This document shows positions 3,573 through 52,150 of a DNA stretch of 64,000 nucleotides, piece after piece (position 1 is the first letter of the stretch; the number at the start of each line of letters is the position of its first letter). Origin of the DNA: Opitutales bacterium. Its GTDB lineage: Bacteria > Verrucomicrobiota > Verrucomicrobiia > Opitutales > JABSRG01. The position numbers and the translations under genes are program-made. Where the stretch lies: contig JBNPEH010000021.1 in the NCBI GenBank assembly GCA_051117635.1, forward strand, positions 21,673-85,672. Reading direction: 5' to 3'. The notes beneath the pieces are model-generated. The model was not told where the DNA came from, made no database searches, and was given only the letters and a program-made list of their open reading frames with translations.

Positions 3573-4290
3573 AGCAAAATTAGACTTTTTGAAAAGTATT
3601 CCATCTTGGCTTGCACTAAAAAATAAGCATATCGGGAAACGCGGTTTTGTCATTGGCAATGGCCCAAGCTTGAATGCGGGCCAATTGGATTTGCTAAAGG
3701 ACGAAATAACCATTGCATCTAACAAAATCTACTTGGTTTTCAATGAAACTGAATGGAGGCCGAAGTATTACACAATATCAGATAATTTAGTCTGGCAAAA
3801 AGTTGGCAATATTGTTGGTTCCTATTTTGATAAAGTTTATACTTCAAACAGTAATCGAGGTAACCCGGAAGGTGTAAAAAAAGTCGTATGGAGAAACAGG
3901 GGTAAGGTTTTAGAACCTCGCAATGGTTTTTTTTCTAGGTCGCCGATTTTAGGCTTATTCGGTGGTTCAACTGTAACTTTTGACAACATGCAGTTAGCAG
4001 TTTTTATGGGTTTGAATCCTATTTACCTTATCGGGTGTGATCATTTTTACGATGAAGCTAAAAACGCTGAAGAACTAAAGCCAATACGGCATGAAAATAA
4101 ATCCAACCATTTTCATAAGGATTATCGAAAGCCCGGAGAATTAGTTAATCCTGCACCTATAGCCCAAATGGATCTGGCTTACGGTGCAGCCGCAGATTTT
4201 GCGACTAAAAACAAATGGATGATAAAAAATCTAACTCCGGGCGGTTTTTTGGAAGCCTTCCCCAGGGATTCATTAGAAACTATACTCTAG
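3553..4290 (+). CDS. DUF115/MptE-like putative glycosyltransferase (Maf / sialyltransferase-like GNGPSL motif)
   Basis: 'GFVIGNGPSLN', 'IASN' and 'IYLIGCDHFY' resemble the nucleotide-sugar-binding core of DUF115 Maf proteins and GT42 Cst-II ('AGNGPSL'). The call is from motif memory only. Confidence 0.5.
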   Translation: MIQDRIEAKLDFLKSIPSWLALKNKHIGKRGFVIGNGPSLNAGQLDLLKDEITIASNKIYLVFNETEWRPKYYTISDNLVWQKVGNIVGSYFDKVYTSNSNRGNPEGVKKVVWRNRGKVLEPRNGFFSRSPILGLFGGSTVTFDNMQLAVFMGLNPIYLIGCDHFYDEAKNAEELKPIRHENKSNHFHKDYRKPGELVNPAPIAQMDLAYGAAADFATKNKWMIKNLTPGGFLEAFPRDSLETIL

Positions 4291-4297
4291 CCTCTTA

Positions 4298-5251
4298 ATG
4301 CCTGTAACTCTATCGATAGTAATCAATAATTACAATTATGCCCATTTCCTTGGTCAAGCAATTGAAAGTGCCATTGCTCTAGAATGGTCGCCCAAGGAGG
4401 TGATTGTTGTGGACGATGGGTCAACTGATAATTCTAAAAATGTTATTTTAAATTTTAGAGATAAGATAAAATATGCATTTAAAGAAAATGGTGGTCAAGC
4501 ATCCGCCTTTAACAAAGGTTTTGAATTGGCAACCGGTGATTATGTTTGGTTTTTGGATGCTGATGACTACATAAGGCCAGATTCAGTCAGGCATTTAATC
4601 AAAGCACTCTCTTCATCACCTGAAATTTGTCATTTTAATTTTTCTACTATACGGTCTGACGGGTCGTTAATTAAAAATAAAGCTGCTAATAAATTTCCAT
4701 CTAACTACGTTGATGAGAAATGCATTTCCTCCACATTAAAATCGTGGTATCCGCCTACATCAGCAAATGTCTTTAAGATGAAATTGTTACAAAAAATATT
4801 TCCAATACCAAATGTTTGGAGGATAAGTGCAGATACTTTTCTTATTCTAAATTCAAGAATGGAGGGCGAGTATTGCTTTTATAACGAGGCGATTGTCGCT
4901 TATCGAATTCATGAGCAAAATAATTTTAACTTACTAGTACAAAAACCAGACAAGCAACGCCTATCAAATATTGGTTGGACTATGTATCGTAAGTACATTC
5001 TGACTGAAAATTTGTTCTATAAAAATACTAAGAAGCGCCCACCTCATCCCTTGATGAGTCCGGGTGAATTGTTTAACATGCTTTATCTGCCAAAATTAAA
5101 TAAAGATTCACCGATTACTTGTTTAGAAATAATGTTTCTAATGCTTAGATTTGATAAAAAGGAAATTTTCTCAAACTGGAAGGTGATTTTAAAGTTCGCT
5201 TTGTTACTTTTCCTTCCACTTAAATTTGTAAAAAAAGTTAAATCAAAATGA
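4298..5251 (+). CDS. family-2 glycosyltransferase
   Basis: 'LSIVINNYNYAHFLGQAIESA', 'VIVVDDGSTDNS' and the DxD motif 'WFLDADDY' are present. Confidence 0.8.
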   Translation: MPVTLSIVINNYNYAHFLGQAIESAIALEWSPKEVIVVDDGSTDNSKNVILNFRDKIKYAFKENGGQASAFNKGFELATGDYVWFLDADDYIRPDSVRHLIKALSSSPEICHFNFSTIRSDGSLIKNKAANKFPSNYVDEKCISSTLKSWYPPTSANVFKMKLLQKIFPIPNVWRISADTFLILNSRMEGEYCFYNEAIVAYRIHEQNNFNLLVQKPDKQRLSNIGWTMYRKYILTENLFYKNTKKRPPHPLMSPGELFNMLYLPKLNKDSPITCLEIMFLMLRFDKKEIFSNWKVILKFALLLFLPLKFVKKVKSK

Positions 5252-6111
5252 ATATTGTTCTTACATCTAACCGGGCTTTCTTAGTAAGAACATTTGCAAC
5301 AATTTTTTCTATTGAAAAATTTAGTTCTGTTAAAAACAAATACTTTATTTTAATTGAAGAAAATAATAAGAATCTATCTAATAGGATAAGTCAATTTTCT
5401 GAAATGTACGGATTTGACATTTGCTATATTGAAATAGACAGGCAGCTTTTTAACGGATTGCCAATTAATTCTAGAATTAGTAGTGAGACATACTTTAGAT
5501 TAGCGATTCCCACAATATTTAAAGGTCGCTATTCTGAACTGGTTTATGTCGACTCTGATTTTCTTTTTTTAGATGATATAGAACGTTTAATACCCAAAAC
5601 CAAAATGGAAAAATTCCTGTCTGCAGTCCCTGATCCATTAATTTGTAGAGGAGGACATAAAGAGAATTGGAGAGACACTTCATATTTTAATGCCGGACTA
5701 TTAGTATTTAATTTAAATCAGAATCATAATTTGATTCAATATGCCCAAGAAAACATTAGATTTATTCTAAGTAAAGAAGATCCTTACCTTTTTGATCAAG
5801 ATATCTTAAACTACTACTTAAATGGAGATTTCATCCAAATGCCCTACAAATGGAATATGCAAACAAAGTTCTTTAAACGAATTAATCTAGCTAAAAAGAA
5901 AGGGCTAACTAGTGAAGATTTTTTAAAACCAGCTGCTATTCATTTTTCCGGAAATTTAAAACCTTGGATTCGCGGAGTTTATCATCCATATAAAGATATT
6001 TATCTAAGCCATCTATCTGAACTAATCGATGATGCCGATTGCGTTAAAAAAGCACCCCTCAGGGTGATCAGTTTTAAAATTGCCCAATTTCTTTCAATCT
6101 TTGAAAAATAA
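5248..6111 (+). CDS. family-8 glycosyltransferase (RfaJ/LgtC-like)
   Basis: ATGA overlap with the upstream gene. DxD motif in 'VYVDSDFLFLDD'; C-terminal 'IHFSGNLKPW' is typical of GT8. Confidence 0.75.
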   Translation: MNIVLTSNRAFLVRTFATIFSIEKFSSVKNKYFILIEENNKNLSNRISQFSEMYGFDICYIEIDRQLFNGLPINSRISSETYFRLAIPTIFKGRYSELVYVDSDFLFLDDIERLIPKTKMEKFLSAVPDPLICRGGHKENWRDTSYFNAGLLVFNLNQNHNLIQYAQENIRFILSKEDPYLFDQDILNYYLNGDFIQMPYKWNMQTKFFKRINLAKKKGLTSEDFLKPAAIHFSGNLKPWIRGVYHPYKDIYLSHLSELIDDADCVKKAPLRVISFKIAQFLSIFEK

Positions 6112-6113
6112 CA

Positions 6114-7439
6114 ATGGAATTCAGAATTGCCAGATGTGTTTTTTATAGTGTTTTCTTTGTCATTCTTTTTTTGCCTCTGCGGGGAGACCTTTTATTTTCT
6201 ATCGTCGGCTGTGTGTTTCTGCTAGATATAGCTATAATTTATTTGGGAAAACGTAGTCAATTGAATCCGATTTCCTTTTTTCAACTGGGATTTATTTTTA
6301 TATTATGCATGGAGGGTATTTTTAGCTATAAAATAATAAGTGGTATTGTTGGCGAAGATAATGTTGATTTCGCTGTTCAGTTGCTAAGTCAAGGAGGAGC
6401 TCTCTTAATTTTAGGTTATTTGGTTTGTGAGAAGGAAGTTGGTAGGCATGGGATGCTGTTTTTGAAAAATCCCGCCCACGGCAAAAATTTAGTAATTTTA
6501 TTTTATATAATTTGTATATACCAATTCCTTCCGATGGCGTATTTTACTATTCGGTTTGGCAGGCATTATGGCTATGGGAATGAATTCGCAGCGATAAATA
6601 TATTACCATCCTTTCTAGTCTTTCCCCTTTTTATTATTTCAATTCTTGCCCCGTCCCTTATATGTATTTATTTTAAAGCAATCGGTTGTAGGAATTGGAC
6701 AAGAAAAAGCTTGATTTACGCTGCCCCTTTACTTCTTTTAATTATTTTAGGGGGAAGAAGATATATGATTTTATATGCCTTTCTTCCCGTTATTTTTATT
6801 TGTTTTGGTGGCCAAGATCTCCAACTTAAAAAAATTATCCGACTATCAGTTGTAGGCCTTTTAATTTTAGCCAGCGCGGTGTCGACTTATTATTTAAGAT
6901 GGGGAATCGATAATCTTTCCGTGGACCTTCTCCAAGAGCGAGTTTTTGATGTATCTACTACTTTTAATGAGAATGCAGTTCGAAGAATGGCTTTAGCGAC
7001 AGATTATTATCGTTTTGAAAGTCATGAACCTTTCCATAACACCGCATATATTTTCACTTTTTTCATCCCTCGAGTTTTTTGGCAAGATAAACCAATAAAA
7101 ATGGAGATTTGGTTTCCTCAAGTATACGAAAGGGAACGTCGCAGATCATCATATTCTGCGAGTATGAGCTTTATGGCCCCATTCTATGGGGATTTTGGTT
7201 ACGGGCTATCCCTAGTTTTTGCTTGCCTGTTGGGGGTATTTATTTCCTTTATTCGAAATCTATTAACAAGCCGCCTCTTACAAATGGGACAATTTACGGA
7301 TGCTATTAATGGTGTATTGGCAGCGGGATTGTTTTTTTTGCCAAGGCAACTTGGAACAGCTTGGGCCCAGACAATTGGATTTTTAATCATTATAATTGCT
7401 ATAAGATTTTTCTTCTTCTCAAGGTATGAAAAAGTTTAA
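6114..7439 (+). CDS. polytopic membrane protein, putative O-antigen/EPS polymerase (Wzy-like)
   Basis: 441 aa with roughly ten or more hydrophobic segments and no soluble domain. It is embedded between glycosyltransferase genes. The function is inferred from context. Confidence 0.5.
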   Translation: MEFRIARCVFYSVFFVILFLPLRGDLLFSIVGCVFLLDIAIIYLGKRSQLNPISFFQLGFIFILCMEGIFSYKIISGIVGEDNVDFAVQLLSQGGALLILGYLVCEKEVGRHGMLFLKNPAHGKNLVILFYIICIYQFLPMAYFTIRFGRHYGYGNEFAAINILPSFLVFPLFIISILAPSLICIYFKAIGCRNWTRKSLIYAAPLLLLIILGGRRYMILYAFLPVIFICFGGQDLQLKKIIRLSVVGLLILASAVSTYYLRWGIDNLSVDLLQERVFDVSTTFNENAVRRMALATDYYRFESHEPFHNTAYIFTFFIPRVFWQDKPIKMEIWFPQVYERERRRSSYSASMSFMAPFYGDFGYGLSLVFACLLGVFISFIRNLLTSRLLQMGQFTDAINGVLAAGLFFLPRQLGTAWAQTIGFLIIIIAIRFFFFSRYEKV

Positions 7440-8280
7440 TTTGTTTATAATTGGGGCCCAAAAGACAGGTTCTTCGTATTTACATTTCTTGCTTTTAAAT
7501 CAAAATGAAATAAGTGGTCCAAGAGAGGAGATTGATAGTTTTGATCTTCCTAATGGAAAGCTGAATTTTCCTCTCCAAAACACTCCATATAGGTTGTGTA
7601 AACGAGCAAATTTGTTGGCAAATCTTGACGCCGCAAATAGGATTCATAAGTATAACAAGGATGCTAAAATCCTAGTAGTCCTACGAAACCCTGTTAGTAG
7701 GTTAGAATCTTCGATTCGTCATTATATGAGACTAGGACTTCTGGAGTTTAAACCCTTAGATTTTTATGGCGCGAAAATTTTAAACGATAATTGGTCTGAA
7801 TTAAATAAACCGTTGCAACTTGCTGTCCAATTCTCGCTTTATGGGAAGTATCTTTTAGAATGGATCAAGATCTTTGGCTGTCAGCAAGTTTTAATTATAA
7901 AAGAAAATGAAATAAAATCAAAAGAGTGTTTAAAGCATATGTTAGAAGGATTTCTTTGCTTGAAATCTCCCCTAGTTTTTAAGAATATAAGCAATGCGTA
8001 TAGCAAAACAATACCAAATAATTATAATCTTTACAAGTTAAGTAATCGTTCGGCGAAATTTTTTTGGAAAAGACAAGGCGAATGCAAAATTAAAAGAAGG
8101 AGGCCTATTTTCTTAAGCCGCACAGTAAATTATGTGCTCTTAAGAACTTTCATCTTTTGTTTTAGAGCGGAAGATGTGAAAGGCAAAAAATTGTTGGCCT
8201 TTTCCCCGGAATTTAGAAGTAGTCTGTTTGTAATCTTTAAAGAAGATCAAAGACTATTATCTACCTTAGTGAAATCTTGA
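7426..8280 (+). CDS. PAPS-type sulfotransferase family protein
   Basis: 'FIIGAQKTGSSYL' resembles the 5'-phosphosulfate-binding loop and 'VVLRNPVSRLESS' the 3'-phosphate-binding motif. Confidence 0.6.
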   Translation: MKKFNLFIIGAQKTGSSYLHFLLLNQNEISGPREEIDSFDLPNGKLNFPLQNTPYRLCKRANLLANLDAANRIHKYNKDAKILVVLRNPVSRLESSIRHYMRLGLLEFKPLDFYGAKILNDNWSELNKPLQLAVQFSLYGKYLLEWIKIFGCQQVLIIKENEIKSKECLKHMLEGFLCLKSPLVFKNISNAYSKTIPNNYNLYKLSNRSAKFFWKRQGECKIKRRRPIFLSRTVNYVLLRTFIFCFRAEDVKGKKLLAFSPEFRSSLFVIFKEDQRLLSTLVKS

Positions 8281-9428
8281 AAATTATAATTTACTGGGAA
8301 TATTTCCAACGCTACCACAATGCGCGTTTGTCAGCGTTGATTCGTCTGGCTGAGAAGCAGGGTCATTTAGTTCTCCCGGTTTCCCTTTCAGAAAAAGGCC
8401 ACCATGGCCATCGAACCGAGCGCGATCCGTTTGTTGACTCCAGAGCCATTCATCTTGCAGGCAAACAAGCATCGCGGCCTATCAATGATCCCGTCATCGT
8501 TGATCAGTTCGTTGACCTTTTAGAAAAAGAAAGGCCCGATGTTGTTTCCATTGTGGGTTGGTATGGGCGCGGTACTTATCGAATTTTAAAATGGGCAAAA
8601 AAAAATTCTAAAAAGATTATTTTATTGCTGGCCGGAAGCCAACATGACAAACGGCGTAATCCACTGAAAGAGGCCTACAAGCGCTATTTTATTTTGTCCA
8701 AGGTTGATGCTGTTCTTTGCGGAGGTAAACCGCATGTCCGATATGCCTCCCGTTTGGGAATGAACAAGTCCTCAATTTTCACCGGTTACAATGCTGTGGA
8801 CAACGACTTCTGGGCTTCAGCGGGCGAAGAGTCCCGAATGCGGTCCAGGGAACTCGCCGATAAGCTGGGCTTTCGCCCGAAACAATTCTTTGTTACGGCT
8901 GGGCGGTTTATCCCCAAGAAAAATTTTGAAGCCCTTATTGAGCAATATTCTTATTACCGTGCTCAATTTTGTGCTGAGCCATGGGATTTAGTAATCGTGG
9001 GCGACGGTGAGTTACGCCCACGGTTGGAATTTAAAATCACTCAGCTTGGCCTGAACAATCACGTACACCTCCCAGGCTACCTTTCGAGTGAAGAATTGGC
9101 CCCTTATTTTGGACTGGCCGGCGCTTTCGTTCTACCAAGTTCTGGTTTTGAACAATGGGGATTGGTCGTAAATGAGGCGATGGCAGCCGGTTTGCCGGTC
9201 ATCGTGAGTACCGTGTGTGGGTGTTGTGAGGATCTTGTTGTTGATGGGGAAACCGGCTTCAGCTTTTCGCCTGAAAGGATGGATGACCTGGCTCTCGCAA
9301 TGGAAAAGATTTCAGGTGATGAAGCAATGCGGGATAAAATGGCTTCTCTGGCTGCGAAACATATTCAAGGTTATTCTTCTGACGTCTTTGCTACCAACTT
9401 CCTCAAAGCCTGCAAACATTGTAAGTAA
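8277..9428 (+). CDS. GT4 (GT-B fold) glycosyltransferase
   Basis: TTG start overlaps the upstream TGA. EX7E region 'GFEQWGLVVNEAMAAGLPVIVS...GETGF' is present. Confidence 0.8.
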   Translation: MKIIIYWEYFQRYHNARLSALIRLAEKQGHLVLPVSLSEKGHHGHRTERDPFVDSRAIHLAGKQASRPINDPVIVDQFVDLLEKERPDVVSIVGWYGRGTYRILKWAKKNSKKIILLLAGSQHDKRRNPLKEAYKRYFILSKVDAVLCGGKPHVRYASRLGMNKSSIFTGYNAVDNDFWASAGEESRMRSRELADKLGFRPKQFFVTAGRFIPKKNFEALIEQYSYYRAQFCAEPWDLVIVGDGELRPRLEFKITQLGLNNHVHLPGYLSSEELAPYFGLAGAFVLPSSGFEQWGLVVNEAMAAGLPVIVSTVCGCCEDLVVDGETGFSFSPERMDDLALAMEKISGDEAMRDKMASLAAKHIQGYSSDVFATNFLKACKHCK

Positions 9429-9443
9429 TTATTATAAAGGTTC

Positions 9444-10520
9444 ATGGCGACGTTAACCATTCATGCAACCAACGTGACAGGACTTGGAGCAAGCCAGGTC
9501 GTCGTTTCCTTTCTGGAGGCATTGGACAAAGCTAACACTACCTTCTCCGAAATTTTGTGCTACGTTCCGGAATCCGGACCGGTGGCGGAGTTCAAACCTG
9601 GTTCTGATTTTTTCCATGTTTTCCCCTACAAACGTCTCGGTCCCAAAGCAATCAGCCGTGCACTGGAATGCCTTTTCCCCGGATTATTTTTTAAATCATC
9701 CGATCTGTTAATTGTGTTGGGGGACGTGCCCTTGCGGGTCAGAACTCAGCAAATCGTGCTTGTCCACCAGCCCCATTTGCATAGTCCGCGTGTTAATCCC
9801 TGGGTTGGACGGTCTCTGACCTATCGCTTGATGCGTGGGTTGACGCGTCTCAATGCGAAGTTTGCCAGTCAGGTTATCGCGCAGACCAATGCGATGGCTG
9901 AAGGCCTGAAAGAATCCTATGAAAATTGGCGCCAACGAGATTGTTTGACTGTGATTGGTCAGCCGCCTCCCTCGTGGTTCCGAACCGATGGGCGTCAGGA
10001 GCGGTTGATCGGGGATGCGGACGGACTTCGGCTTTTCTACCCGGCAGCGGATTACCCACACAAAAACCATCAAATTTTCGAAGGGTTGCTTAGGTTGGAC
10101 GTGTCTGGGCTTGTTGAACGGATCACCTTGACTGTACCCGACGGGCGAATTGCTCATTCAAGTAAATGGCTGTATTGTGTCGGCCGCCTCAATCATGAAC
10201 AGTGTCTTGAGGCTTATCAATCGGCGGATGCTCTAGTCTTCCCATCTGTTCTAGAAAGTTATGGTTTACCCTTGGTCGAAGCCATGGTGATGGGTCTGCC
10301 AATACTGGCATCCGATCTGCCCTATGCGAGGGCACTTTGTGGTGGCGTCGCTATATACTTTGATCCCAAATCGCCGGAAAATTTGCTGGCTGCCTGTACC
10401 GAATTGAAACAGCGGCTTGGTGATGGCTGGAAACCGGATTGGTCAGCACAGCTCCAAAAAATGCCTCCGAATTGGTCAGAAGTCGTGAGTGCTTTCTTGC
10501 GCCTGGCTGACAGCAAATAG
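9444..10520 (+). CDS. GT4 (GT-B fold) glycosyltransferase
   Basis: 'FPSVLESYGLPLVEAMVMGLPILASD' is the EX7E-type C-terminal motif. Confidence 0.7.
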   Translation: MATLTIHATNVTGLGASQVVVSFLEALDKANTTFSEILCYVPESGPVAEFKPGSDFFHVFPYKRLGPKAISRALECLFPGLFFKSSDLLIVLGDVPLRVRTQQIVLVHQPHLHSPRVNPWVGRSLTYRLMRGLTRLNAKFASQVIAQTNAMAEGLKESYENWRQRDCLTVIGQPPPSWFRTDGRQERLIGDADGLRLFYPAADYPHKNHQIFEGLLRLDVSGLVERITLTVPDGRIAHSSKWLYCVGRLNHEQCLEAYQSADALVFPSVLESYGLPLVEAMVMGLPILASDLPYARALCGGVAIYFDPKSPENLLAACTELKQRLGDGWKPDWSAQLQKMPPNWSEVVSAFLRLADSK

Positions 10521-10521
10521 C

Positions 10522-11355
10522 ATGCAAAATCCCATTATCATACTTGGGGCACCAAGAAGCGGGACCACCATCCTCGGTGAGATTTTATCTGCCCATCCCG
10601 ATCTGCATTACCTTGTTGAGCCGAATCCCTTGTGGCGTCGCTACGTAAGATCGCGTTGCGACTACTTTAATTTAGAACAAGAATGGGATGCAGTAGAACC
10701 TACCAAGGGCCTGTTCGAATCTGAAATGCGGAAATCATTGAAGATGAGGCTTCTGGAGAAGACACCGCAAAACTGTCTTAGAGTTCCATTTGTGGATGCA
10801 GTCTTTCCCGATGCAAAGTTTGTTCATATTTTGCGGGATGGCGTGGAGTCTTCTTTGTCAATTGCCAGGTATTGGCAAAAGCACACGCATGGGTTTCGGG
10901 GGGTTCGTCTGCGTCAACGTCTGAGGGAGGCTTCGCTGCAGCAACTGCCGCGATATGGGATCCAGGCATTCAAGCGATTGTTGCCTGCGGGCACGAAGCC
11001 ACGGGTATTCTGGGGACCTGTGTTGCCGGGAATGGGGCAAATGGTCGATTGCATGAGCATCACGGAGGTTGCCGCCATGCAATGGCGCATGTGCGTCGAG
11101 CAGGCAACCTTCCATGGACGAAAACTCCCTCCGAATCAGTATTTGGAACTGCGCATCGAGGAGTTCAACAAAGAGAAATTGAAGCAAGTCATCGAGTTTG
11201 TGGGCTTGTCGAGCGAATCATCTGTGTTTGAGGCAGCCGAGGAACGCTTCATCAGAGACCAGACAGCGCATCGAATTGCTGAAGCAGACGAGAAAGAGGT
11301 AGAGCTTGTAAAACGCTGGGTGCTGCCGACGATGAAGTGGCTTGGTCAGCTTTAA
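10522..11355 (+). CDS. sulfotransferase family protein
   Basis: ATG 10522 lies 2 nt after the upstream stop. 'IIILGAPRSGTTILGEIL' is a PSB-loop-like segment and 'HILRDGVESSLS' is 3'-PB-like. Confidence 0.65.
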   Translation: MQNPIIILGAPRSGTTILGEILSAHPDLHYLVEPNPLWRRYVRSRCDYFNLEQEWDAVEPTKGLFESEMRKSLKMRLLEKTPQNCLRVPFVDAVFPDAKFVHILRDGVESSLSIARYWQKHTHGFRGVRLRQRLREASLQQLPRYGIQAFKRLLPAGTKPRVFWGPVLPGMGQMVDCMSITEVAAMQWRMCVEQATFHGRKLPPNQYLELRIEEFNKEKLKQVIEFVGLSSESSVFEAAEERFIRDQTAHRIAEADEKEVELVKRWVLPTMKWLGQL

Positions 11356-17509: not shown

Positions 17510-17991
17510 GGGGATGAGGTAACCGCAAAGCCGCGAAGGCGGCGAAGGGCTGGTACGCCGGCAAGGGGGGAACCACGAAGAGCACCAAGAAGCACAAAGG
17601 GCTTGTTCGCCGGAGAGGGGAGGGCTGTCCCGCGCAGCGGGACTTTTGAGTGCGGTGACTCCGATCACCGCTTTGACTTTAGGCGCCTCTCCGAGGCGCT
17701 GTAGGCCACGCCAGGGGGCCTGCGGCCTACACTCGTTGAGCTTCGGTGGACACAGCCGGCACGGCCCGCTAAACCCGGCGCTCGGGGACGAGCGCCCTCC
17801 CCGCCTTCGTTCTCCGGACTACGGCGGGCAATCCCGGGGACAACCCCCACACGGCGAACCAGCCGTTGCGCTCGTTGCGCTCGTTGCGCTCGTTGCGTGA
17901 GCCCCCCACGCGCTTGTCCCGGCGTAGTCCCCGTTCCGGTGGTGACGGTCCTTCGCGTGCCCCCTTCCGTCCTTGGCTCCTTTGCGGTTAC
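17485..17991 (+). mobile_element. structured repeat, copy C (longest; 9-bp GTTGCGCTC triplication at 17864-17890; outer inverted module ending 17991)
   Basis: Same core as A and B. 'GTAACCGCAAAG' (17519-17530) is inverted at 17980-17991. Confidence 0.7.
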
Positions 17992-18737
17992 AAAATAGCC
18001 AGTAAATCCGTGATCTCCGCCGCGAGGCCGGTGGCGCCCGCATCCAGCCAGCGCTCGCCCTTGGCGCGGGTGGCCTGGGTGGCGTCGCCCATGGTGCCGG
18101 TGGGCGAGACATCGGCGGTGACCCAGCTGTAGGTGGCCGGCGCGAATTCGGGTCGCAGTTCGCCCGGGGCGTCGACATCGCCGATCCAGCAGCAGTCGCG
18201 TTTGTCCGTATCGACCAGATCGGTGGCGGCCATCAGCCAGCTGGTCTCGCCTTCGCCGGCGTGGATGCCGTACTGTGCCTCACGCTCCGAGTGGACATCG
18301 AAGTCGGCGCGAAAGCGGAGCTGGACCGCCTGCAGGCCGTGCGTGTCCTGGACCTCGCGGAGCGTCTGCTCGAGGACGGCGCTGTTGCCGCCGTGGGTGT
18401 TGAGGATGGCGAGGGCACCGAAACCCAGCCCGGCGGCCTCCTCCGCCACGGCCAGCACCAGCCGCCGGAGCGTGGTGCGCGAAAGGATCAGGGTGCCGGG
18501 ATAGCCCGCGTGTTCGTTGCTCTTGCCGATGGTGATGGGCGGGGCGACGTAGACCGGGGCGTCGTCGGGCAGCTTCGGGGCGGTCCACTGGAGCCAGACC
18601 TGGCCCATGAGCGCATCGACGCCGACCGGCAGGTGCGGGCCATGCTGCTCGATCGCCCCCGTCGGCAGGATCAGCACGGCTTTGGCAAAGTCGGTAGCCT
18701 CGATTTGGGTCAGGGTGAGGGAGGCGAGGGAGATCAT
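17988..18737 (-). CDS. creatininase (creatinine amidohydrolase) family metal-dependent hydrolase
   Basis: Family motifs are intact: 'AIEQHGPHLPVGVD', 'ILNTHGGN', 'HAGEGETS'. Confidence 0.8.
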   Translation of the reverse strand: MISLASLTLTQIEATDFAKAVLILPTGAIEQHGPHLPVGVDALMGQVWLQWTAPKLPDDAPVYVAPPITIGKSNEHAGYPGTLILSRTTLRRLVLAVAEEAAGLGFGALAILNTHGGNSAVLEQTLREVQDTHGLQAVQLRFRADFDVHSEREAQYGIHAGEGETSWLMAATDLVDTDKRDCCWIGDVDAPGELRPEFAPATYSWVTADVSPTGTMGDATQATRAKGERWLDAGATGLAAEITDLLAIL

Positions 18738-18815
18738 GGGTTCGGGGTTCCGCCGTCGCTCGGGGAGCTATGGCGGACAAGTCGGGGTTCGAGGTTCGAC
18801 GTTCGGGGTTCGACG
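18738..18815. repeat. GGTTCNN heptad-periodic intergenic repeat
   Basis: 'GGGTTCGAGGTTCGACGTTCGGGGTTCGACG' read directly from the sequence. Confidence 0.6.
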
Positions 18816-18980
18816 TGCTGTGTGGCGAGGGTGGTTGGAAATGATACTGCCGGCGTGTCGGAGACCCGCCTCCCAAAGCGGCGAAGGATACGCCGCACTC
18901 AAAAGGTCGGTCTTGGATAACATCTACTGAGCTGAAGGTTCTTCAGGGTGGATGAGTCAAACCAGGAAAATTCTGATTTT

Positions 18981-19014
18981 CAGAACACAGAACGTAGAAC
19001 GCCGAACTTAGAAC
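18981..19014. repeat. NNGAACN heptad-periodic repeat (inverse orientation of 18784-18815)
   Basis: 'CAGAACACAGAACGTAGAACGCCGAACTTAGAAC' read directly from the sequence. Confidence 0.6.
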
Positions 19015-19877
19015 TTTCCCCGCGTCTCAATCCGCCCGTCGTTCTTCAGGGGCGGCCATTCGTGGATTTCGGTGAGGAGGCCGGCGAGGCGGGTGGCGCG
19101 GGTGGCGAGGAGGTCGGGGCCGGTTTTTTCGGCCTCGGCCCGGTCGGCGGGAGAGTCCGTGAGGGCCGGGATGCCATCGGCAAAATCGCCGGGTCGGAAG
19201 GTTCGCTGTTCGGGGTTCGACGTTCCAGGTTCGCTGTTCTGCACCCGATGATCGTCCTGGCTCTGACGAGGGTTTTCTGGCTTCTGCCTGCTGCCCTGCC
19301 GTGAGCCTGTCGAAGGGCCCTCCGACCCCTCGGGGCCTTGCCCCGACAGGAAGGTCGCCAGGGTCTGGGCCTCATGGCGCGTCTTGCTTCTGCCCGGATG
19401 CAGGTCGATATCGAGCCCGGCCAGGTTGACGCAGAAGAGCTGAAGGCCTTTTTCCTGACGCAGGTCGCGTCCGCAGACGTCGATAAAGGCCTCGTTCCAG
19501 GGACTGGTGTTGAAGAGGACGAGTTTGCGGAAGCCGGCCATCGCGATGCTGTCCGCGATTTCGAAGACCTGCTGGTAGGCGGTCTCGGGGTCGATACCGA
19601 AGAGGGCTGACCCGCGGTAGCCCGGCGGCACGAAGCGGACGGGTGGCGCCACCAGCAGCGGCAGCCGGTCCTTTGCCTCGGTCACCGCCGCCTTCAGGAT
19701 GCCGAGCCCCAGCGTCTCCTCGAGGTCCATCGGATGCCCGAGGCCCCAGTCGCTCATGCCGATCACCGGCAGGATGATGAGCGTCTCCGCCCTGGCGTCA
19801 GCGGACTGTTCGGCAAACCAGGGCGAGGGCTGGTGCGCCCAGAAGGTGGTGGGTTCGACGTTGGCGAGGAGGGACAT
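19008..19877 (-). CDS. creatininase-fold paralogue with degenerate metal-binding motifs and a low-complexity insertion
   Basis: Collinear with 17988..18737, but the motifs read 'SDWGLGHPMDLEE', 'LFNTSPWN' and 'RHEAQT'. An insertion of roughly 50 aa ('GPEGSEGPSTGSRQGSRQKPENPRQSQDDHRVQNSEPGTSNPEQRT') is encoded by intergenic-type repeat DNA. Confidence 0.6.
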   Translation of the reverse strand: MSLLANVEPTTFWAHQPSPWFAEQSADARAETLIILPVIGMSDWGLGHPMDLEETLGLGILKAAVTEAKDRLPLLVAPPVRFVPPGYRGSALFGIDPETAYQQVFEIADSIAMAGFRKLVLFNTSPWNEAFIDVCGRDLRQEKGLQLFCVNLAGLDIDLHPGRSKTRHEAQTLATFLSGQGPEGSEGPSTGSRQGSRQKPENPRQSQDDHRVQNSEPGTSNPEQRTFRPGDFADGIPALTDSPADRAEAEKTGPDLLATRATRLAGLLTEIHEWPPLKNDGRIETRGKF

Positions 19878-46551: not shown

Positions 46552-47862
46552 TTACGCCAGCTCGCCGCGCATGGCATCCCCCTGGACGGCCTGGCCGAGG
46601 CGTTTGCCCATGGCGCGGTAGGTTTCGGCGGGGGAGGCTTGCCCGACCGGGGCTCCCTCCAAGCCAAGAAGCTGGTGAATCTCCGGTAGAATTGATCGGT
46701 AACGGGTGGAAAAGACAAACCGGCCGATTTCCCCGCCATCGGGCCCAGCTACGGTGACAGCCTCGGAAACCAGGCCGGTGCGGGCACCCAGGCGATGATC
46801 CGCCAGCGGCTGAATCACGGGCTGCCCGAAGCCGAACCCGGTGGGCCGGGCCAGGTGGACCGCCCCGTTGGCGTCGACGACCAGCCAGACGCGCTGGCGT
46901 TTGGCAAATTGCTCCCAGCCGCTGCCGGTGGTGAACCCTGGAAGGACCAGCTGCGGCTCGGGGAAGGCCTGCTTCAACTTGCCTGGCGGAAGCGCGGCGG
47001 TCCGCAGGCCGGGTTTCCGGCTGAGCCCGACAGCTCCGAGCATCCGGTGCAGCAGCGGGCTGAAGAGCAGCACGCGGTAGTAGCGCGCGATCCGGTAGAC
47101 CCACCGGAAGACCAGCAGGCAGCTGAAAAAGAGGATGAGGTTGATCGTCAGCGCGAGACTCGGGCTGAAGACATAAATCGCCATCAGGCCAGCGGTGGTG
47201 AGCTTGAGCAGGGTTTCGAACAGCGCATCAACAAAGGGGATGGGGCTCAGGAAAATCAGCACCTCGAAGAAGAATTTCACCGCGTTGATCACGAAGATGT
47301 TGATGGCCGAGAGCGCGATCAGGAGCGTCTCGCCGGTCGCCTGGAAGAACCCGGCCTGATAAACCACGGCCACTTCTTCGCCGGCCTGCGGACTGGCCAG
47401 CGAGGACACGCCCTGGATCACCGCGATCGACACGATCCCGGCGTAGGCCTCGAGCTGGTCCACCGCCTGCGCCATCGGCTTGGTCAGTTTCATGAACTTG
47501 GGCGCGGAGGTCGCGCCGGTCAGCCCGAGAAAGGCCAGGAAGGTGAGGGGGTGGCTCAGCGTCTCGTTGCTGGTCAGCAACGGATTGCCCGCCAGGGCGT
47601 CGACCAGACCGGTCTCGGCCAGCAGCGCGGCCCCCGACAGACAGGTGATGCCGAAAAAGGGCGAGAGCGCGACCGGCGCGAGCGGGCCGAGATACTCGGC
47701 GATGGGCAGGGTGCTGGCGAAGGTGTTCCCGGTCTGGACCGGTTCGGCTACCGCCCAGAGCAGGCAGGGCAGGCCGAACACGGCGGCGATGATCAGCCAC
47801 GCCTTTCCCGGGGTCGGGAAGGCGGACCAGGCAAGGCGCTTTGGAGAGCTACCGGGCAGCAT
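46552..47862 (-). CDS. hypothetical multi-pass membrane protein with ~150-aa soluble C-terminal domain
   Basis: The N-terminal ~280 aa are hydrophobic and the C-terminal part is soluble. I recognised no family motif. Confidence 0.5.
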   Translation of the reverse strand: MLPGSSPKRLAWSAFPTPGKAWLIIAAVFGLPCLLWAVAEPVQTGNTFASTLPIAEYLGPLAPVALSPFFGITCLSGAALLAETGLVDALAGNPLLTSNETLSHPLTFLAFLGLTGATSAPKFMKLTKPMAQAVDQLEAYAGIVSIAVIQGVSSLASPQAGEEVAVVYQAGFFQATGETLLIALSAINIFVINAVKFFFEVLIFLSPIPFVDALFETLLKLTTAGLMAIYVFSPSLALTINLILFFSCLLVFRWVYRIARYYRVLLFSPLLHRMLGAVGLSRKPGLRTAALPPGKLKQAFPEPQLVLPGFTTGSGWEQFAKRQRVWLVVDANGAVHLARPTGFGFGQPVIQPLADHRLGARTGLVSEAVTVAGPDGGEIGRFVFSTRYRSILPEIHQLLGLEGAPVGQASPAETYRAMGKRLGQAVQGDAMRGELA

Positions 47863-47906
47863 GCCTCTGGCTTAGCAAAGCTGAGAGCGAAGACGAGGAA
47901 AACTAT

Positions 47907-47960
47907 GGGTTGCGGGTGGCTGGTTGCGGGTTGCAGGCTTGCCCCGAGCCTGTCGAGGGG
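47907..47960. repeat. GGTTGCG heptad repeat plus GAGCCTGTCGAGGGG motif
   Basis: 'GGGTTGCGGGTGGCTGGTTGCGGGTTGCAGGCTTGCCCCGAGCCTGTCGAGGGG'. The second motif recurs at 19303-19317 inside the creatininase-like gene. Confidence 0.55.
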
Positions 47961-48040
47961 TGGCTGGAGACGGGCTCCTGTGGGACGCGTGGGACGCTCC
48001 CCCTGCGCGCGACTCCGGGCTCTGTGCCGTCGTGCCGCCT

Positions 48041-49522
48041 CTAGGCGCGGTACCGGAAGGTCGTTCCACCGTAGTGGATGGAGAGGTGGTTCTCACCGGC
48101 TGGCAGGGTCGTGGCCTCGGTGCGACCGACGACCTGAGCATCGATCCCGAAGGCCTGGCTGGTGGCGATGACGGCTTCGGCTGCCGCGGGCGCGCAGTAA
48201 ACTTCCATGCGGTGCCCCATGTTGAAGACCTGGAACATTTCCTCCCAGGGGGTGCGACTGGCCTTCTGGATGGCGCGAAAGATCGGCGGTACCCGGAAGG
48301 GCTTGTCCTTGATATAATGAACGCCGGCGCCGAACCGCAGGCACTTCGTCTGCCCGCCGCCTGAACAGTGGATCAGGCCGCGTATGGCAGGCCGTTGTTC
48401 CTCCAGCAAGCGATGAATGACCGGTGCGTAGGTGCGGGTCGGGCTCAGCAGGGCGGCGCCCACCGTCAGGTCGCTGTCGGGCAGCGGATCGTCCAGATGG
48501 TAGGGGCCGCAATAGGTCATCGACCGGTCGATGTTCCCGTCGAAGGTCTCCGGGTATCGGGATGCGTAGTCGGTGTGGAGCAGGTCGTGGCGGGCGCTGG
48601 TCAGGCCGTTGCTGCCGATGCCGCTGTTGGGCGTGTCCTCGTAGGTGGCCTGTCCGTCCGAGGCCAGGCCGACAATCGCCAGACCGGGGCCGATGGCTGC
48701 CGCATCGATCACCTGGTGGCGTTTCAGCACGGCCACCGCGCAGCTGTCGACCGTCACGGTGCCGGTCAGGTCGCCGACATCCGCGGTTTCACCACCCCCG
48801 CTCCAGATGCCGATGCCGTGCCCACGCAGTTTTTCGAGAAAGGCTTCGGTGCCGGCGATCAGTTCGGCCAGCGCCTCGTCGCTGAACCGGCGGGCGTTCC
48901 GGTTGACCGTGCTCGAAAATAAAATGCGGTCGAGGGCGCCGATGCAGAGCAGATCATCGAGGTTCATGACCAGCGAGTCCTGAGCGGTGGCACGGAAGAC
49001 CGACGGATCGCCGCATTCGCGAAACAACAGGTAGGCGACCAGCGACTTGGTCCCCGCGCCGTCGGCATGGATCGCCACACAGGCTTCCGGGTCTCCGGTC
49101 AGGAAGTCCGGATGGATCTTGCAAAAGGCGCCCGGAAAAAGTCCGCGGTCCAACCGGTCGACCACCGCGTGCACCGCGTCTTTCGTAGACGAGACCCCCC
49201 GCGCGCCATACCGGCCCTCCTGCCGCTTCCGCGGACCGGCGTCGCCGTCCGTGGCGGCTGCGGGCGGCTGCGGCTGCCCGATGGCCAGCACCCGGAAGCC
49301 GCTCCGTTCGCGGCCCGCCACCACGCCCTGACTTTCCAGCCACTTCACGGCGCGGACCACCGTCTGGTTCGACAAACCGGTGGCTTCCGCCAGTTTACGG
49401 ACACCCGGCAGGCGCTCCCCGACCGGAATGTGTCCGGCGAGGATTGCCTGGTGCAGCGCCCGGGCGAGCGCATGCCAACGGGCACCCTGTTGATCAAGAG
49501 TCAGGTGAGTCAGCCAAGTCAT
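48041..49522 (-). CDS. purM: GntR-type winged-HTH domain fused to Bacteroidetes-type PurM (AIR synthase)-like enzyme
   Basis: The N-terminus '[60 protein letters not shown]' is a GntR HTH. The body carries '[14 protein letters not shown]', '[10 protein letters not shown]', '[11 protein letters not shown]', '[10 protein letters not shown]', 'HCSGGGQTK' and '[10 protein letters not shown]'. Start is ATG 49522, or GTG 49576. Confidence 0.7.
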
Positions 49523-49729
49523 GCCTGATCTGTATTTTTTAAATGGTACAGTTTGGCAAGGGGAAAGCGCATGCACTCTCCCTGTAATTATCTTTTAACT
49601 CACTGACAGTAGGCTGTTTAATGCTTTTTTGGCTGATAAATCAGGCGAAATTTCTTTCCTTTTCGTTACGGTTGTGTAACAGTGAAGACACTTTCCTGTA
49701 ACATTCACCCTCCATCCCCAGGTGATCTT

Positions 49730-50143
49730 ATGATCGTTTCAAAAGTCTCTCTTCTCAGCAGCCTTTCCCTGATCGCGGCCTCGCTCGCTTTCGGAGCTTC
49801 CACCCAAAGCGACCTGACCGTCCGGTCGGCCCCGCTCGAAGTCATCGATCGGGTGGCCCCGGCCTCCATGCCGGCCTCCGTCGACAAACGGACCGGGGAC
49901 AAGGAAGCCCGGGTCGTCCTGGCCTGCACCATTCAGCCCGATGGCAAGGCCACCCACATTGCGGTGGTCAAGGCGGCTTCGGCCGATCTCATTGAGCCCG
50001 CCGTCAAGGCGCTCGAGTCCTGGACCTTCAAGCCGCGCAAGGTCGATGGCGAAACCGTCGCCACCCGCGTACTGGTGCCCTTCCGTTACCTGCCGACCGG
50101 CAGCGAGCGTGTTCCCGGCGCGGTGGTTGCCGGCAAGGAGTAA
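49730..50143 (+). CDS. secreted TonB C-terminal-domain protein
   Basis: Start at ATG 49730 with signal peptide 'MIVSKVSLLSSLSLIAASLAFGAS'. 'ARVVLACTIQPDGKATHIAVVKAAS...ALESWTFKPRKVDGETVATRVLVPFRY' is a TonB_C fold pattern. There is no TM or Pro-rich region. Confidence 0.65.
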   Translation: MIVSKVSLLSSLSLIAASLAFGASTQSDLTVRSAPLEVIDRVAPASMPASVDKRTGDKEARVVLACTIQPDGKATHIAVVKAASADLIEPAVKALESWTFKPRKVDGETVATRVLVPFRYLPTGSERVPGAVVAGKE

Positions 50144-50505: not shown

Positions 50506-51201
50506 TCACCGCCGCTCAGGCGGGTCAAGCGGGCTGCGACGGGTCGTGTCGACTTTTCGCACATCGAGGATTTCCACCGGCTCGACAGGGACTTCGGGCA
50601 GGCCCTTTCGGGTGGTTGTCGGGATTTTGCTGATGGCATCGACGACCTCCATGCCACTGGTGACCCGGCCAAAGACGGCGTATCCGAAATTCACCGCGCC
50701 GTGGTCGAGGTTCGGGTTGTCCGAAACATTGATGAAAAACTGGGCGTTGCCGGAGTCCTTTTCCATCGTGCGTGCCACCGCGATGGTGCCCCGTGTGTTT
50801 TTGAGCCCATTGAAGGCTTCGTTCGGCAGGTTGGGCTTGGTCGGTTCTTTCCGTTCCAGCTCCGGGGTGAAGCCACCGCCCTGGATCATGAAGCCGTCGA
50901 TCACCCGGTGGAACAGCGTGCCCTGGTAGAAGTCTTCCTCCGCGTATTCGAGAAACTGAGCCACGGTCTTGGGCGACTGGTTGTGGAAAAGTTCCAGGCG
51001 GATATCACCCGCAGTCGTTTCCATCACGACCTCGGAGGTGACTACCGGCAGGCGGTAGCGGTCGATGTCCCGATTGATCGGGCGGTTGCGCTCCCGACAA
51101 CCGGTGGTTGCCACCAGCAGGAGCGCCATCAGGCCCCAAAGCCCGAGTGGGCAAAGGCTGCGCCGGGTACGAGGAGGCATTCCGGAAAGAAAAGAAGGCA
51201 T
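50506..51201 (-). CDS. cyclophilin-type peptidyl-prolyl cis-trans isomerase, exported/lipoprotein-like
   Basis: 'FHRVIDGFMIQGGGF' and 'GTIAVARTMEKDSGNAQFFI' are present. The N-terminal 'LMALLLVATTGC' is signal/lipobox-like. Confidence 0.85.
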   Translation of the reverse strand: MPSFLSGMPPRTRRSLCPLGLWGLMALLLVATTGCRERNRPINRDIDRYRLPVVTSEVVMETTAGDIRLELFHNQSPKTVAQFLEYAEEDFYQGTLFHRVIDGFMIQGGGFTPELERKEPTKPNLPNEAFNGLKNTRGTIAVARTMEKDSGNAQFFINVSDNPNLDHGAVNFGYAVFGRVTSGMEVVDAISKIPTTTRKGLPEVPVEPVEILDVRKVDTTRRSPLDPPERR

Positions 51202-51310: not shown

Positions 51311-52150
51311 TCAGGGAATTTTCACTTTCGCGGGGTCGAATCCCAGTTCCGGCCAGGCCAGGCCGAGGCGATCGAGTTGCTCCACGATGATGCGGGCGAT
51401 GATGATGTTCCGTACCCATTTCCGGTTGGAGGGGATGATGAACCAGGGCGCATGGTCGAAGCTGGTCCGTTCGAAAACCTCGTTGTAGGCATCCATATAA
51501 TCTTCCCAGCGTTCGCGGGCCACCAGGTCGCTGGGATCGAATTTCCACTGCTTGTGGGGCTCCTTGAGGCGGCTTTCCAGGCGCTCGCGCTGCTCCTCTT
51601 TGTCGATATGGAGGAAAAACTTGAGCAACAGGACGCCTTCGTCGGCCAGCATCCGTTCCCAGGCGTTGATGTGGTCGAAACGGGCGCGCCAAATCGTCTC
51701 CGGGGCCAGCTTGTTGACCCGCACGGCGGTCACATCCTCGTAGTGGCTGCGATCGAAGAGCTTGATCTGGCCCTTGGCCGGCGAGTGCTGCGTGACGCGC
51801 CAGAGGTAGTCCCGGTCCAGCTCCTCGGGTGTCGGCTTGTTGAAGCTGGCGACGCTGAATCCGATGGGATTGGCGTACCGGAAGACGTGCCGGATGGTGC
51901 CGTTCTTGCCACTGGTGTCCATACCCTGCAGGACGATCAGCACCTTATGCTGCTTCTGGGCGAAGAGCTGCATCTGGAGGTCGCCCAGGCGGCGCCCGAG
52001 GTCGTCGACCAGCTGGTAACCTTCCTTCTTCGGAAAATCGAACGACTCCCGGTCATCGACCGGCCAGCGGCGAACATCGACCCGGCTCTGGGGCTGGACG
52101 CGGTAGGGCTCGGACTGGCTGGTGGCGACGGGCGGGGCTTCCATAACCAT
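51311..52150 (-). CDS. ppk2: polyphosphate kinase 2 family protein
   Basis: 'VLIVLQGMDTSGKNGTIRHV', 'DYLWRVTQHSPAKGQIKLFDRSHYEDV' and 'WFIIPSNRKWVRN' are present. Confidence 0.85.
   Translation of the reverse strand: MVMEAPPVATSQSEPYRVQPQSRVDVRRWPVDDRESFDFPKKEGYQLVDDLGRRLGDLQMQLFAQKQHKVLIVLQGMDTSGKNGTIRHVFRYANPIGFSVASFNKPTPEELDRDYLWRVTQHSPAKGQIKLFDRSHYEDVTAVRVNKLAPETIWRARFDHINAWERMLADEGVLLLKFFLHIDKEEQRERLESRLKEPHKQWKFDPSDLVARERWEDYMDAYNEVFERTSFDHAPWFIIPSNRKWVRNIIIARIIVEQLDRLGLAWPELGFDPAKVKIP

Follow-up and report, generated by a model that had tools for sequence, protein, structure and literature searches.

A GntR winged helix joined to an apparently intact PurM in an Opitutales bacterium: a candidate self-regulating enzyme of purine synthesis

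Regulators of the GntR family bind palindromes as dimers, and six types of effector or oligomerisation domain are recognised among them: FadR, HutC, MocR, YtrA, AraR and PlmA. In this study, we analysed a stretch of 64,000 nucleotides from an Opitutales bacterium (assembly GCA_051117635.1, contig JBNPEH010000021.1, positions 21,673 to 85,672 of the forward strand), hereafter the window, to which all coordinates refer unless another locus is named. On its minus strand, a single gene joins a GntR winged helix-turn-helix (wHTH) to a PurM body. PurM is the aminoimidazole ribonucleotide (AIR) synthetase, which converts formylglycinamidine ribonucleotide (FGAM) and ATP into AIR, ADP and inorganic phosphate, and it is a homodimer in solved structures. 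YtrA regulators are typically autorepressors. These short proteins have about 120-130 aa and dimerise through a short C-terminal domain of two helices (PMC6746942), and their helix-turn-helix (HTH) domains are closest to those of MocR proteins (PMC4494728, PMC6746942). They bind ~24-bp palindromes with distal conserved GT/AC, present as a single site and usually serving one operon that includes their own gene (PMC4494728, PMC6746942). The fusion shares with them the long palindrome, the distal GT/AC and the single site before its own gene. Unlike YtrA proteins, which usually belong to operons for ABC transporters or membrane proteins, it carries a 390-aa enzyme as its tail. MocR regulators such as GabR, PdxR and TauR resemble the fusion: an N-terminal GntR wHTH is followed by a flexible linker and then by a large dimeric domain with an enzyme fold, about 350-400 aa in size. 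However, the C-terminal domain of the fusion is PurM, of the AIRS fold and unrelated to ATP-grasp, instead of a fold-type-I pyridoxal phosphate aminotransferase, and it looks catalytically intact. Moreover, its candidate operator is a compact 22-bp palindrome, whereas MocR operators are reported to be direct repeats or to have no shared palindrome (PMC4494728).

Trigger enzymes provide a further comparison. Like the fusion, BirA, NadR, PutA and the archaeal RbkR combine a metabolic enzyme with an N-terminal HTH, winged or not, and have operators at genes of their own pathway, including their own gene. The DNA-binding domain of RbkR has been lost in some lineages (PMC5397151), which matches the interleaving of fused and unfused PurM proteins described below. 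Nevertheless, these proteins differ from the fusion in enzyme fold, in pathway (here, de novo purine synthesis) and in the family of the DNA-binding domain (here, GntR). PurR of Bacillus subtilis is a purine-pathway repressor that also combines a winged helix with an enzyme-fold, phosphoribosyltransferase-like effector domain. Its effector domain is inactive, however, and senses phosphoribosyl pyrophosphate; the fold, the HTH family and the operators (PurBoxes) are different as well. The closest relatives of the enzyme part, in sequence and predicted fold, are Bacteroidetes-type PurM proteins (PDB entries 3KIZ and 3MDO) and unfused PurM proteins of Opitutales, for example that of Coraliomargarita akajimensis. 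These lack the wHTH and the linker, and five unfused purM loci lack the operator. Public databases already contain the GntR-PurM architecture, and automatic annotation names it inconsistently ('GntR family transcriptional regulator', 'AIR synthase-related protein', 'hypothetical protein', 'phosphoribosylformylglycinamidine cyclo-ligase'). Our full-text literature searches found no paper describing or testing it, and no purine-biosynthesis enzyme with such an arrangement in the literature searched.

The gene, its parts and the sites before it are the following:

48041..49522, minus strand: coding sequence of the GntR-PurM fusion, 493 aa plus stop (stop codon 48041-48043).
49280..49522, minus strand: GntR winged helix-turn-helix of YtrA/MocR-like type, residues 1-81 (Pfam, NCBIfam, AlphaFold2 (AF2) model).
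49217..49279, minus strand: Pro/Ala/Gly-rich flexible linker, residues about 82-102 (predicted local distance difference test (pLDDT) below 50 at residues 83-98).
48044..49216, minus strand: PurM (AIR synthetase) body of Bacteroidetes/Verrucomicrobia type, residues 103-493 (Pfam, structure, motifs).
49530..49551, no strand assigned: predicted operator, the 22-bp palindrome CTGTACCATTTAAAAAATACAG (gene strand), from a position weight matrix (PWM) and a pattern; candidate site of the protein's own wHTH dimer.
49554..49559, minus strand: -35-like hexamer TTGCCA, read from the sequence, 5/6 against TTGACA, 2 nt upstream of the operator.

The reading frame is unbroken from either GTG 49576 or ATG 49522 to the stop codon. 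An identical protein has been deposited at NCBI as MGJ3243072.1 ('MAG: GntR family transcriptional regulator [Opitutales bacterium]'; MAG, metagenome-assembled genome), on a contig of 209.9 kb. Pfam recognises GntR (PF00392) at residues 19-78, with 45.2 bits for a cut-off of 27 (7e-12), and, both above cut-off, AIRS (PF00586) at residues 145-263 (35.4 bits) and AIRS_C (PF02769) at residues 279-471 (37.3 bits). The AF2 model, built on 62 homologues, reached a pLDDT of 90.3 and a predicted TM-score of 0.84. It consists of a winged helix at residues 1-81 (helices 15-28, 41-48 and 52-64, strands 68-71 and 75-78; pLDDT 83-95), a disordered stretch at residues 83-98 and the PurM body. The Pfam score together with these three helices and two-strand wing places the N-terminal domain in the GntR family. 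The original prediction, made from the sequence alone, had described a GntR HTH, a linker and a full-length PurM body in one protein, and the unbroken frame, the Pfam matches and the model bear it out. Every peptide that it had quoted is indeed found (DGAGTK at 154, GGGETA at 242, HCSGGG at 385 and FNMGHR at 433).

ATG 49522 is the better of the two possible starts, because homologues begin at the aligned position and because GTG 49576 would put the operator inside the coding region. The translation contains no further ATG between residues 1 and 186, and hence a separate ATG-initiated PurM product is unlikely. An invariant RYxxRGVSxxK segment marks the beginning of the PurM body. Across the fused proteins the HTH aligns well, and the linker varies in length and sequence: it measures ~21 residues in the window protein as against about 2-7 in gammaproteobacterial fusions, and about 2-30 aa among homologues overall.

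The fusion recurs in many genomes. Among the best 120 database homologues, 40 are GntR+AIRS fusions of 470-512 aa and the remaining 80, about 398 aa long and chiefly from Opitutales/Coraliomargarita, are unfused. We then scanned one genome per GTDB species with a 9-sequence alignment of the fused-family HTH as query. The HTH and the PurM body were found in one open reading frame (ORF) in 43 species-level genomes (L001-L043), and three more fused genes, of Verrucomicrobia type, lie on further assembly contigs (L184-L186). Going by the record titles, most of the 43 loci belong to Gammaproteobacteria (n=32; Pseudomonadales, 'Candidatus Azotimanducaceae', OM182), including three complete chromosomes; the others come from seven MAGs labelled Polyangiaceae/Deltaproteobacteria, one Planctomycetota MAG and three Opitutales MAGs. 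The fusion spans at least four bacterial phyla, a recurrence well beyond chance. Its presence as one ORF in independent assemblies, together with the unbroken frame in the window, also agrees with the earlier claim of a single-gene fusion, as opposed to a split gene or a downstream start. In the pairs with unsaturated dS, the ratio of non-synonymous to synonymous substitution rates (dN/dS) was 0.06-0.34 for the HTH codons and 0.13-0.26 for the enzyme body. Both halves are under purifying selection. Two loci in this collection are atypical. The fused gene, operator and hisH-hisF genes of a 'Flavobacterium sp.' MAG (L032) are typical of the gammaproteobacterial clade, and the contig is probably a binning contaminant. 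In one Opitutales MAG (L040, 9371-9914), the fused ORF ends after 181 aa, just past DGSGTK, which indicates a pseudogene or a sequencing error.

Upstream of the fused genes we found a conserved palindrome. Counting matches to CTGTA-N12-TACAG with up to 1 mismatch, it is present 3-110 nt away in 42 of the 43 loci, with 2 further matches in 660 kb of flanking DNA. The 39 distinct sites, the window's included, define the consensus CTGTATYAT-N5-TRATACAG (28 bits). The window holds one pattern match in its 64 kb, both strands considered; this is the site at 49530-49551, whose near edge stands 8 nt from ATG 49522. A PWM derived from other species only scored it at 27.9 bits, compared with 5.7 for the next best position of the window and 16.2 for the best of 30 simulated windows. 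Each of the three additional contigs carries a perfect site, 2-4 nt after a TTGACC or TTGACA hexamer. On the other hand, none of five unfused purM loci has a site within 300 nt upstream, even with two mismatches allowed. The operator therefore follows the HTH and not purM. This finding gives substance to the earlier suggestion that the protein regulates itself, as a conserved palindrome lies at its own promoter. Judging from the position of the -35-like hexamer, the operator would cover the spacer and the -10 region of the promoter of the fusion gene.

Two other identities were considered for the palindrome and rejected. The LexA/SOS box (CTGT...ACAG) has a spacing of N8, as opposed to N14 here, and the palindrome accompanies the HTH in phyla whose LexA motifs differ. 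An RNA hairpin or Rfam element is disfavoured by the conservation of the sequence itself and not just of its pairing; there were no Rfam matches in three related loci, and no tRNAs. Regarding individual loci, the start called in the source assemblies of two of the additional contigs (L184 and L185, site at 2988-3009 in each; MIQ...) falls within the operator. The family alignment points to a Met 8-10 codons downstream as the true start, and the deposited proteins (P0002 and P0006) are probably N-terminally over-extended. The sole fused locus among the 43 with no recognisable operator is that of an Opitutales MAG (L031, 6300-8100), whose 524-aa protein has a long Ser/Pro-rich linker, FNCGHR for FNMGHR and DGSGSK for DGSGTK. 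This locus may be a case of relaxed or altered regulation.

The type of the DNA-binding domain was addressed by similarity searches. The NCBIfam models that best fit the HTHs of the window protein and of the main fused family are PdxR/MocR-like and Rv1152 (short GntR) models. A search of 1.8 billion protein representatives with the N-terminal 101 aa returned diffuse GntR matches and no close relative, the top scores being repeat artefacts; the closest matches include MocR proteins at about 40-50% identity. Those matches of 470-500 aa that were checked had MocR or other architectures, and no PurM fusion was among them. We also searched metagenome contigs for exact matches to CTGTATYAT-N5-TRATACAG and obtained 120 loci (L064-L183) from gut, soil and aquatic samples. 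About 6 of these sites adjoin fused genes and about 45 adjoin genes of stand-alone GntR proteins (117-148 aa), while for 66 no GntR neighbour was detected; no target other than the own gene recurred. The stand-alone genes begin about 0-60 nt after the operator-type site. Their products share 31-47% HTH identity with the fused proteins, and the five that were checked are all GntR-domain proteins. In isolate genomes, the nearest stand-alone relatives are proteins of 118-123 aa from Brachybacterium and Terrabacter. One operator type thus appears to be common to a very broad clade of small putative autoregulators.

Altogether, the single 22-bp CTGTA-N12-TACAG located 8 nt before the own ATG is an operator in the style of YtrA. 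However, the protein has 493 aa, and its wing is followed by a disordered linker and a PurM body. Nor does it have a match to PF00155, which MocR proteins with similar HTHs do carry; AIRS and AIRS_C take its place. Since the defining C-terminal features of both classes fail, the fusion should be filed neither as YtrA nor as MocR. By sequence, it is a YtrA/MocR-like wHTH whose usual C-terminal module is replaced by PurM. The original prediction had named YtrA among the effector classes from which this protein departs; this holds for the effector domain, but not for the DNA-binding domain and the operator, which are YtrA/MocR-like.

We next consider the enzyme. With its AIRS and AIRS_C domains, PurM fold and conserved motifs, the body is a PurM. 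Its closest solved structures are two structural-genomics entries, 3KIZ from Cytophaga hutchinsonii and 3MDO from Parabacteroides distasonis (E about 1e-126), whereas matches to canonical PurMs, 1CLI among them, are far weaker (1e-5 to 1e-14). The AF2 body superimposes on 3MDO and 3KIZ with TM-scores of 0.97-0.98 (1.1-1.3 A) and on canonical AIR synthetases with 0.72-0.90. The 'divergent Bacteroides type' named in the original prediction is therefore the right one. The body is 51-58% identical to the two PDB entries and 66-70% to unfused Opitutales PurMs. An alignment of 80 unfused Opitutales PurMs has 201 columns that are at least 97.5% conserved, and the window protein retains 195 of them. 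The six changes are all conservative (E>A, S>A, L>V, H>L, T>I and V>I), and the S>A change gives DGAGTK, as in both PDB proteins. The motifs DGxGTK, DX4GA, GGETA, SNG, PTR, HxxGGG and FNxG all align with E. coli PurM, as listed here from the N-terminal end of the alignment:

E. coli PurM YKDAGV; window protein RYGARGV.
E. coli PurM DGVGTK; window protein DGAGTK.
E. coli PurM DLVAMCVNDLVVQGA; window protein, corresponding 15-residue segment present.
E. coli PurM GGETAEM; window protein GGETADV.
E. coli PurM HSNGYS; window protein GSNGLT.
E. coli PurM APTRIY; window protein SPTRTY.
E. coli PurM HLTGGG; window protein HCSGGG.
E. coli PurM FNCGVGM; window protein FNMGHRM.

The body thus appears to be an intact, catalytically competent PurM, as far as conservation can tell. 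The 66-70% identity fits ordinary orthologous divergence, because the host lineage is an isolated one: for the neighbouring PPK2, a single relative reaches 81% identity and no other exceeds 61%, and the GltB of the window shares 51% identity with that of the MAG whose PurM reaches 69%. There is no second PurM-like ORF within the 64-kb window, and E. coli proteins used as queries detected no canonical purM or purN in the window or in any of the loci searched.

With regard to the origin of the fusion, a neighbour-joining tree of the PurM bodies shows fused proteins interspersed with unfused ones. The window protein stands beside 75 unfused Opitutales sequences, two smaller fused groups lie among unfused proteins of Verrucomicrobia type, and one large fused clade contains the Gammaproteobacteria together with the Myxococcota-labelled proteins. 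Monophyly of all fused proteins was recovered in 0/200 bootstrap replicates, and the position of the window protein has 20% support. The fusion is either old, with repeated loss of the HTH (as proposed for RbkR), or has arisen more than once. The window locus has no synteny with unfused Opitutales purM loci (Coraliomargarita has cmk-plsC-purM, the window does not), and consequently gene position gives no argument on orthology.

These data suggest that the fusion is a bifunctional AIR synthetase that represses its own promoter, a reading to which we assign a probability of roughly 0.65. With an enzyme and a DNA-binding domain on the same chain and an operator at its own gene, the protein has the architecture of a trigger enzyme, the enzymatic activity being predicted from conservation. 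That it binds DNA, acts as a repressor and not as an activator, and is active as an enzyme is inferred, and so is any response to a ligand. In the mechanism that we propose, the PurM homodimer would replace the short two-helix dimerisation module of YtrA and present two N-terminal winged helices, which would bind both distal half-sites of CTGTA-N12-TACAG. As the palindrome lies between the -35-like hexamer and the start codon, the bound protein would occlude RNA polymerase, and a rising concentration of PurM would lower purM transcription. In addition, ATP/FGAM or AIR/ADP in the active site may shift the geometry of the wHTHs and tune repression. Such an effect is plausible because the linker, of about 2-30 residues, joins the wHTH directly to the invariant RYxxRGVSxxK segment, and we regard a change of DNA affinity upon nucleotide or FGAM/AIR occupancy as possible, at somewhat less than an even chance. 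It would amount to the coupling of purine-pathway flux to transcription that the original prediction had suggested. The fullest version of this proposal is more doubtful: a new class of trigger enzymes and a new GntR subfamily, serving as the sole AIR synthetase of the host, with a ligand-set DNA affinity and with the window protein, given its divergent HTH and a body that lies away from the other fused clades, as a second independent fusion. In that case, flux through step 5 of purine synthesis would directly control how much of the enzyme is made.

Several observations weigh against the self-repressing AIR synthetase. The purM equivalog model TIGR00878 (residues 145-469) gives the window protein 94.3 bits, below its cut-off of 236.35. 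Given this shortfall and the label 'putative' on the PDB entries, AIR synthetase is an identity by homology. The unfused Coraliomargarita PurM, however, scores 96.5 bits, and the unfused and other fused proteins 94-108 bits; hence the shortfall marks a divergent PurM type and not a defect of the fusion. The HTH of the window protein is 25-39% identical to the other fused HTHs, which share about 51% among themselves, and its similarity to the best MocR HTHs, a set chosen as the best matches to the query, is much the same. A shared origin with the main fused family is thus unproven. In addition, the same operator type fronts many stand-alone YtrA-like regulators, so that a different regulator could occupy the site. 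Finally, a scan of 47800-49800 detected no sigma-70 consensus promoter and no terminator, which leaves the -35-like hexamer as the indication that operator and promoter overlap.

Alternatively, the protein could be a regulator only, in which the PurM-like body senses FGAM, ATP or AIR and dimerises while a separate purM performs catalysis. MocR proteins provide the precedent, their aminotransferase-fold domain not being a metabolic enzyme (PMC5320631, PMC4944035). The fused gene adjoins no pur gene, the branch that carries the window protein next to the unfused Opitutales clade is long, and a Bacteroidetes-type PurM is unexpected in Gammaproteobacteria, where canonical purMN could exist elsewhere. 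Nevertheless, the body keeps 195 of 201 conserved positions and every catalytic motif, its dN/dS is 0.13-0.26, and it resembles its unfused orthologues more closely than the neighbouring housekeeping genes of this isolated lineage resemble theirs. The window has no second PurM-like ORF either, and the interleaving on the body tree is what orthologues gaining or losing a domain would produce. We therefore consider a regulator devoid of catalysis unlikely. A wider role, as a pathway-level regulator of purine, thiamine or histidine genes that may act as an activator at some promoters, we regard as quite improbable. In its favour are the divergent hisH-hisF genes at 32/32 gammaproteobacterial loci, as HisHF releases AICAR (aminoimidazole carboxamide ribonucleotide), and a conserved TATAATGCGC on the hisH strand, at a distance of 46-120 nt from the operator (208 nt in one locus). 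A parallel is RbkR, a comparable enzyme-wHTH fusion that controls a pathway regulon (PMC5397151). Such a regulon is at odds with the scarcity of extra sites (2 across 660 kb of flanking DNA, 0 in the window) and with YtrA-type regulons being usually a single operon with a single site (PMC4494728).

The two remaining alternatives concern the HTH itself. If the palindrome were bound by a separate YtrA-like GntR protein or by some other factor, the fused wHTH would be otherwise employed or idle. The many stand-alone YtrA-like genes in metagenomes that are preceded by this operator type lend some weight to the idea, but the site tracks the fused HTH across four phyla (42/43 loci and 4 more) and is missing from 5/5 unfused loci, the HTH is under purifying selection, and no other GntR gene is detectable in the window. 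We deem this very unlikely. Even harder to credit is an artefact, that is, a GntR gene and purM joined by a sequencing or assembly error, or a true start downstream of the HTH. In its favour, the source is a MAG and the linker is of low complexity. However, the frame is continuous with no ATG between residues 1 and 186, the single-ORF architecture recurs in independent assemblies from many studies with linkers down to about 2 residues, and the operator is positioned before the start of the HTH and not before the body. In practice, an error of assembly or gene calling is excluded.

A catalytically intact PurM as a GntR effector would be a seventh domain type, and de novo purine synthesis would gain its first enzyme known to carry a DNA-binding domain of its own. 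To our knowledge, no purine regulator has been described in Verrucomicrobia or in the abundant marine gammaproteobacteria represented by OM182/Azotimanducaceae-labelled MAGs; for both groups, the fusion would offer an entry point to the control of purine genes. The conservation of CTGTATYAT-N5-TRATACAG across phyla makes binding, repression and ligand effects testable with one protein and one 22-bp site, and our analysis corrects the automatic annotation of a variously labelled family.

The genes around the fusion in the window are the following:

49682-50143, plus strand: divergent gene with a TonB_C domain.
50506-51201, minus strand: cyclophilin.
51311-52150, minus strand: PPK2.
46552-47862, minus strand: multi-pass membrane protein, 436 aa, no Pfam match.

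None of these four recurs at any other fused locus. The original prediction had extended regulation to the divergent TonB_C gene. This part finds no support: the operator is 130-175 nt from its possible starts, the neighbour is not conserved at other fused loci and divergent regulation is reported to be rare for YtrA-type regulators (PMC4494728). On the other side, the membrane protein gene follows the fusion on the same strand after 178 nt, and no terminator is predicted in the gap. Co-transcription with the fusion is possible, since YtrA-type regulators often head operons with membrane proteins.

At the 32 gammaproteobacterial loci, the divergent hisH-hisF pair has no hisA between its genes and is present down to a hisH identity of 57% (for example in L038, 8451-9850 and 9900-9985, among L008-L043). 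An almost invariant GCGCATTATAG is found in 23 of these loci, at a distance of 46-208 nt from the operator. Read on the hisH strand, it is CTATAATGCGC, a perfect -10 followed by a GC-rich discriminator, a combination that resembles stringently controlled promoters. AICAR, the product released by HisHF, is a purine intermediate. A functional link or co-regulation between hisHF and the fused gene is possible on this sequence evidence.

Two further regions of the window stand apart from the fusion. At 17988-19877, on the minus strand, there are two adjoining genes of the creatininase family (PF02633), the second with a weak, partial match. The region 3553-11355 comprises eight or nine plus-strand genes with a GC content of 33-55% (third codon positions, GC3, 0.24-0.56), compared with about 65% for the genome. 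Among their products are glycosyltransferases (families 1, 2 and 8), two sulfotransferases and an MptE-like protein, and the region is probably a horizontally acquired sulfated-polysaccharide cluster.

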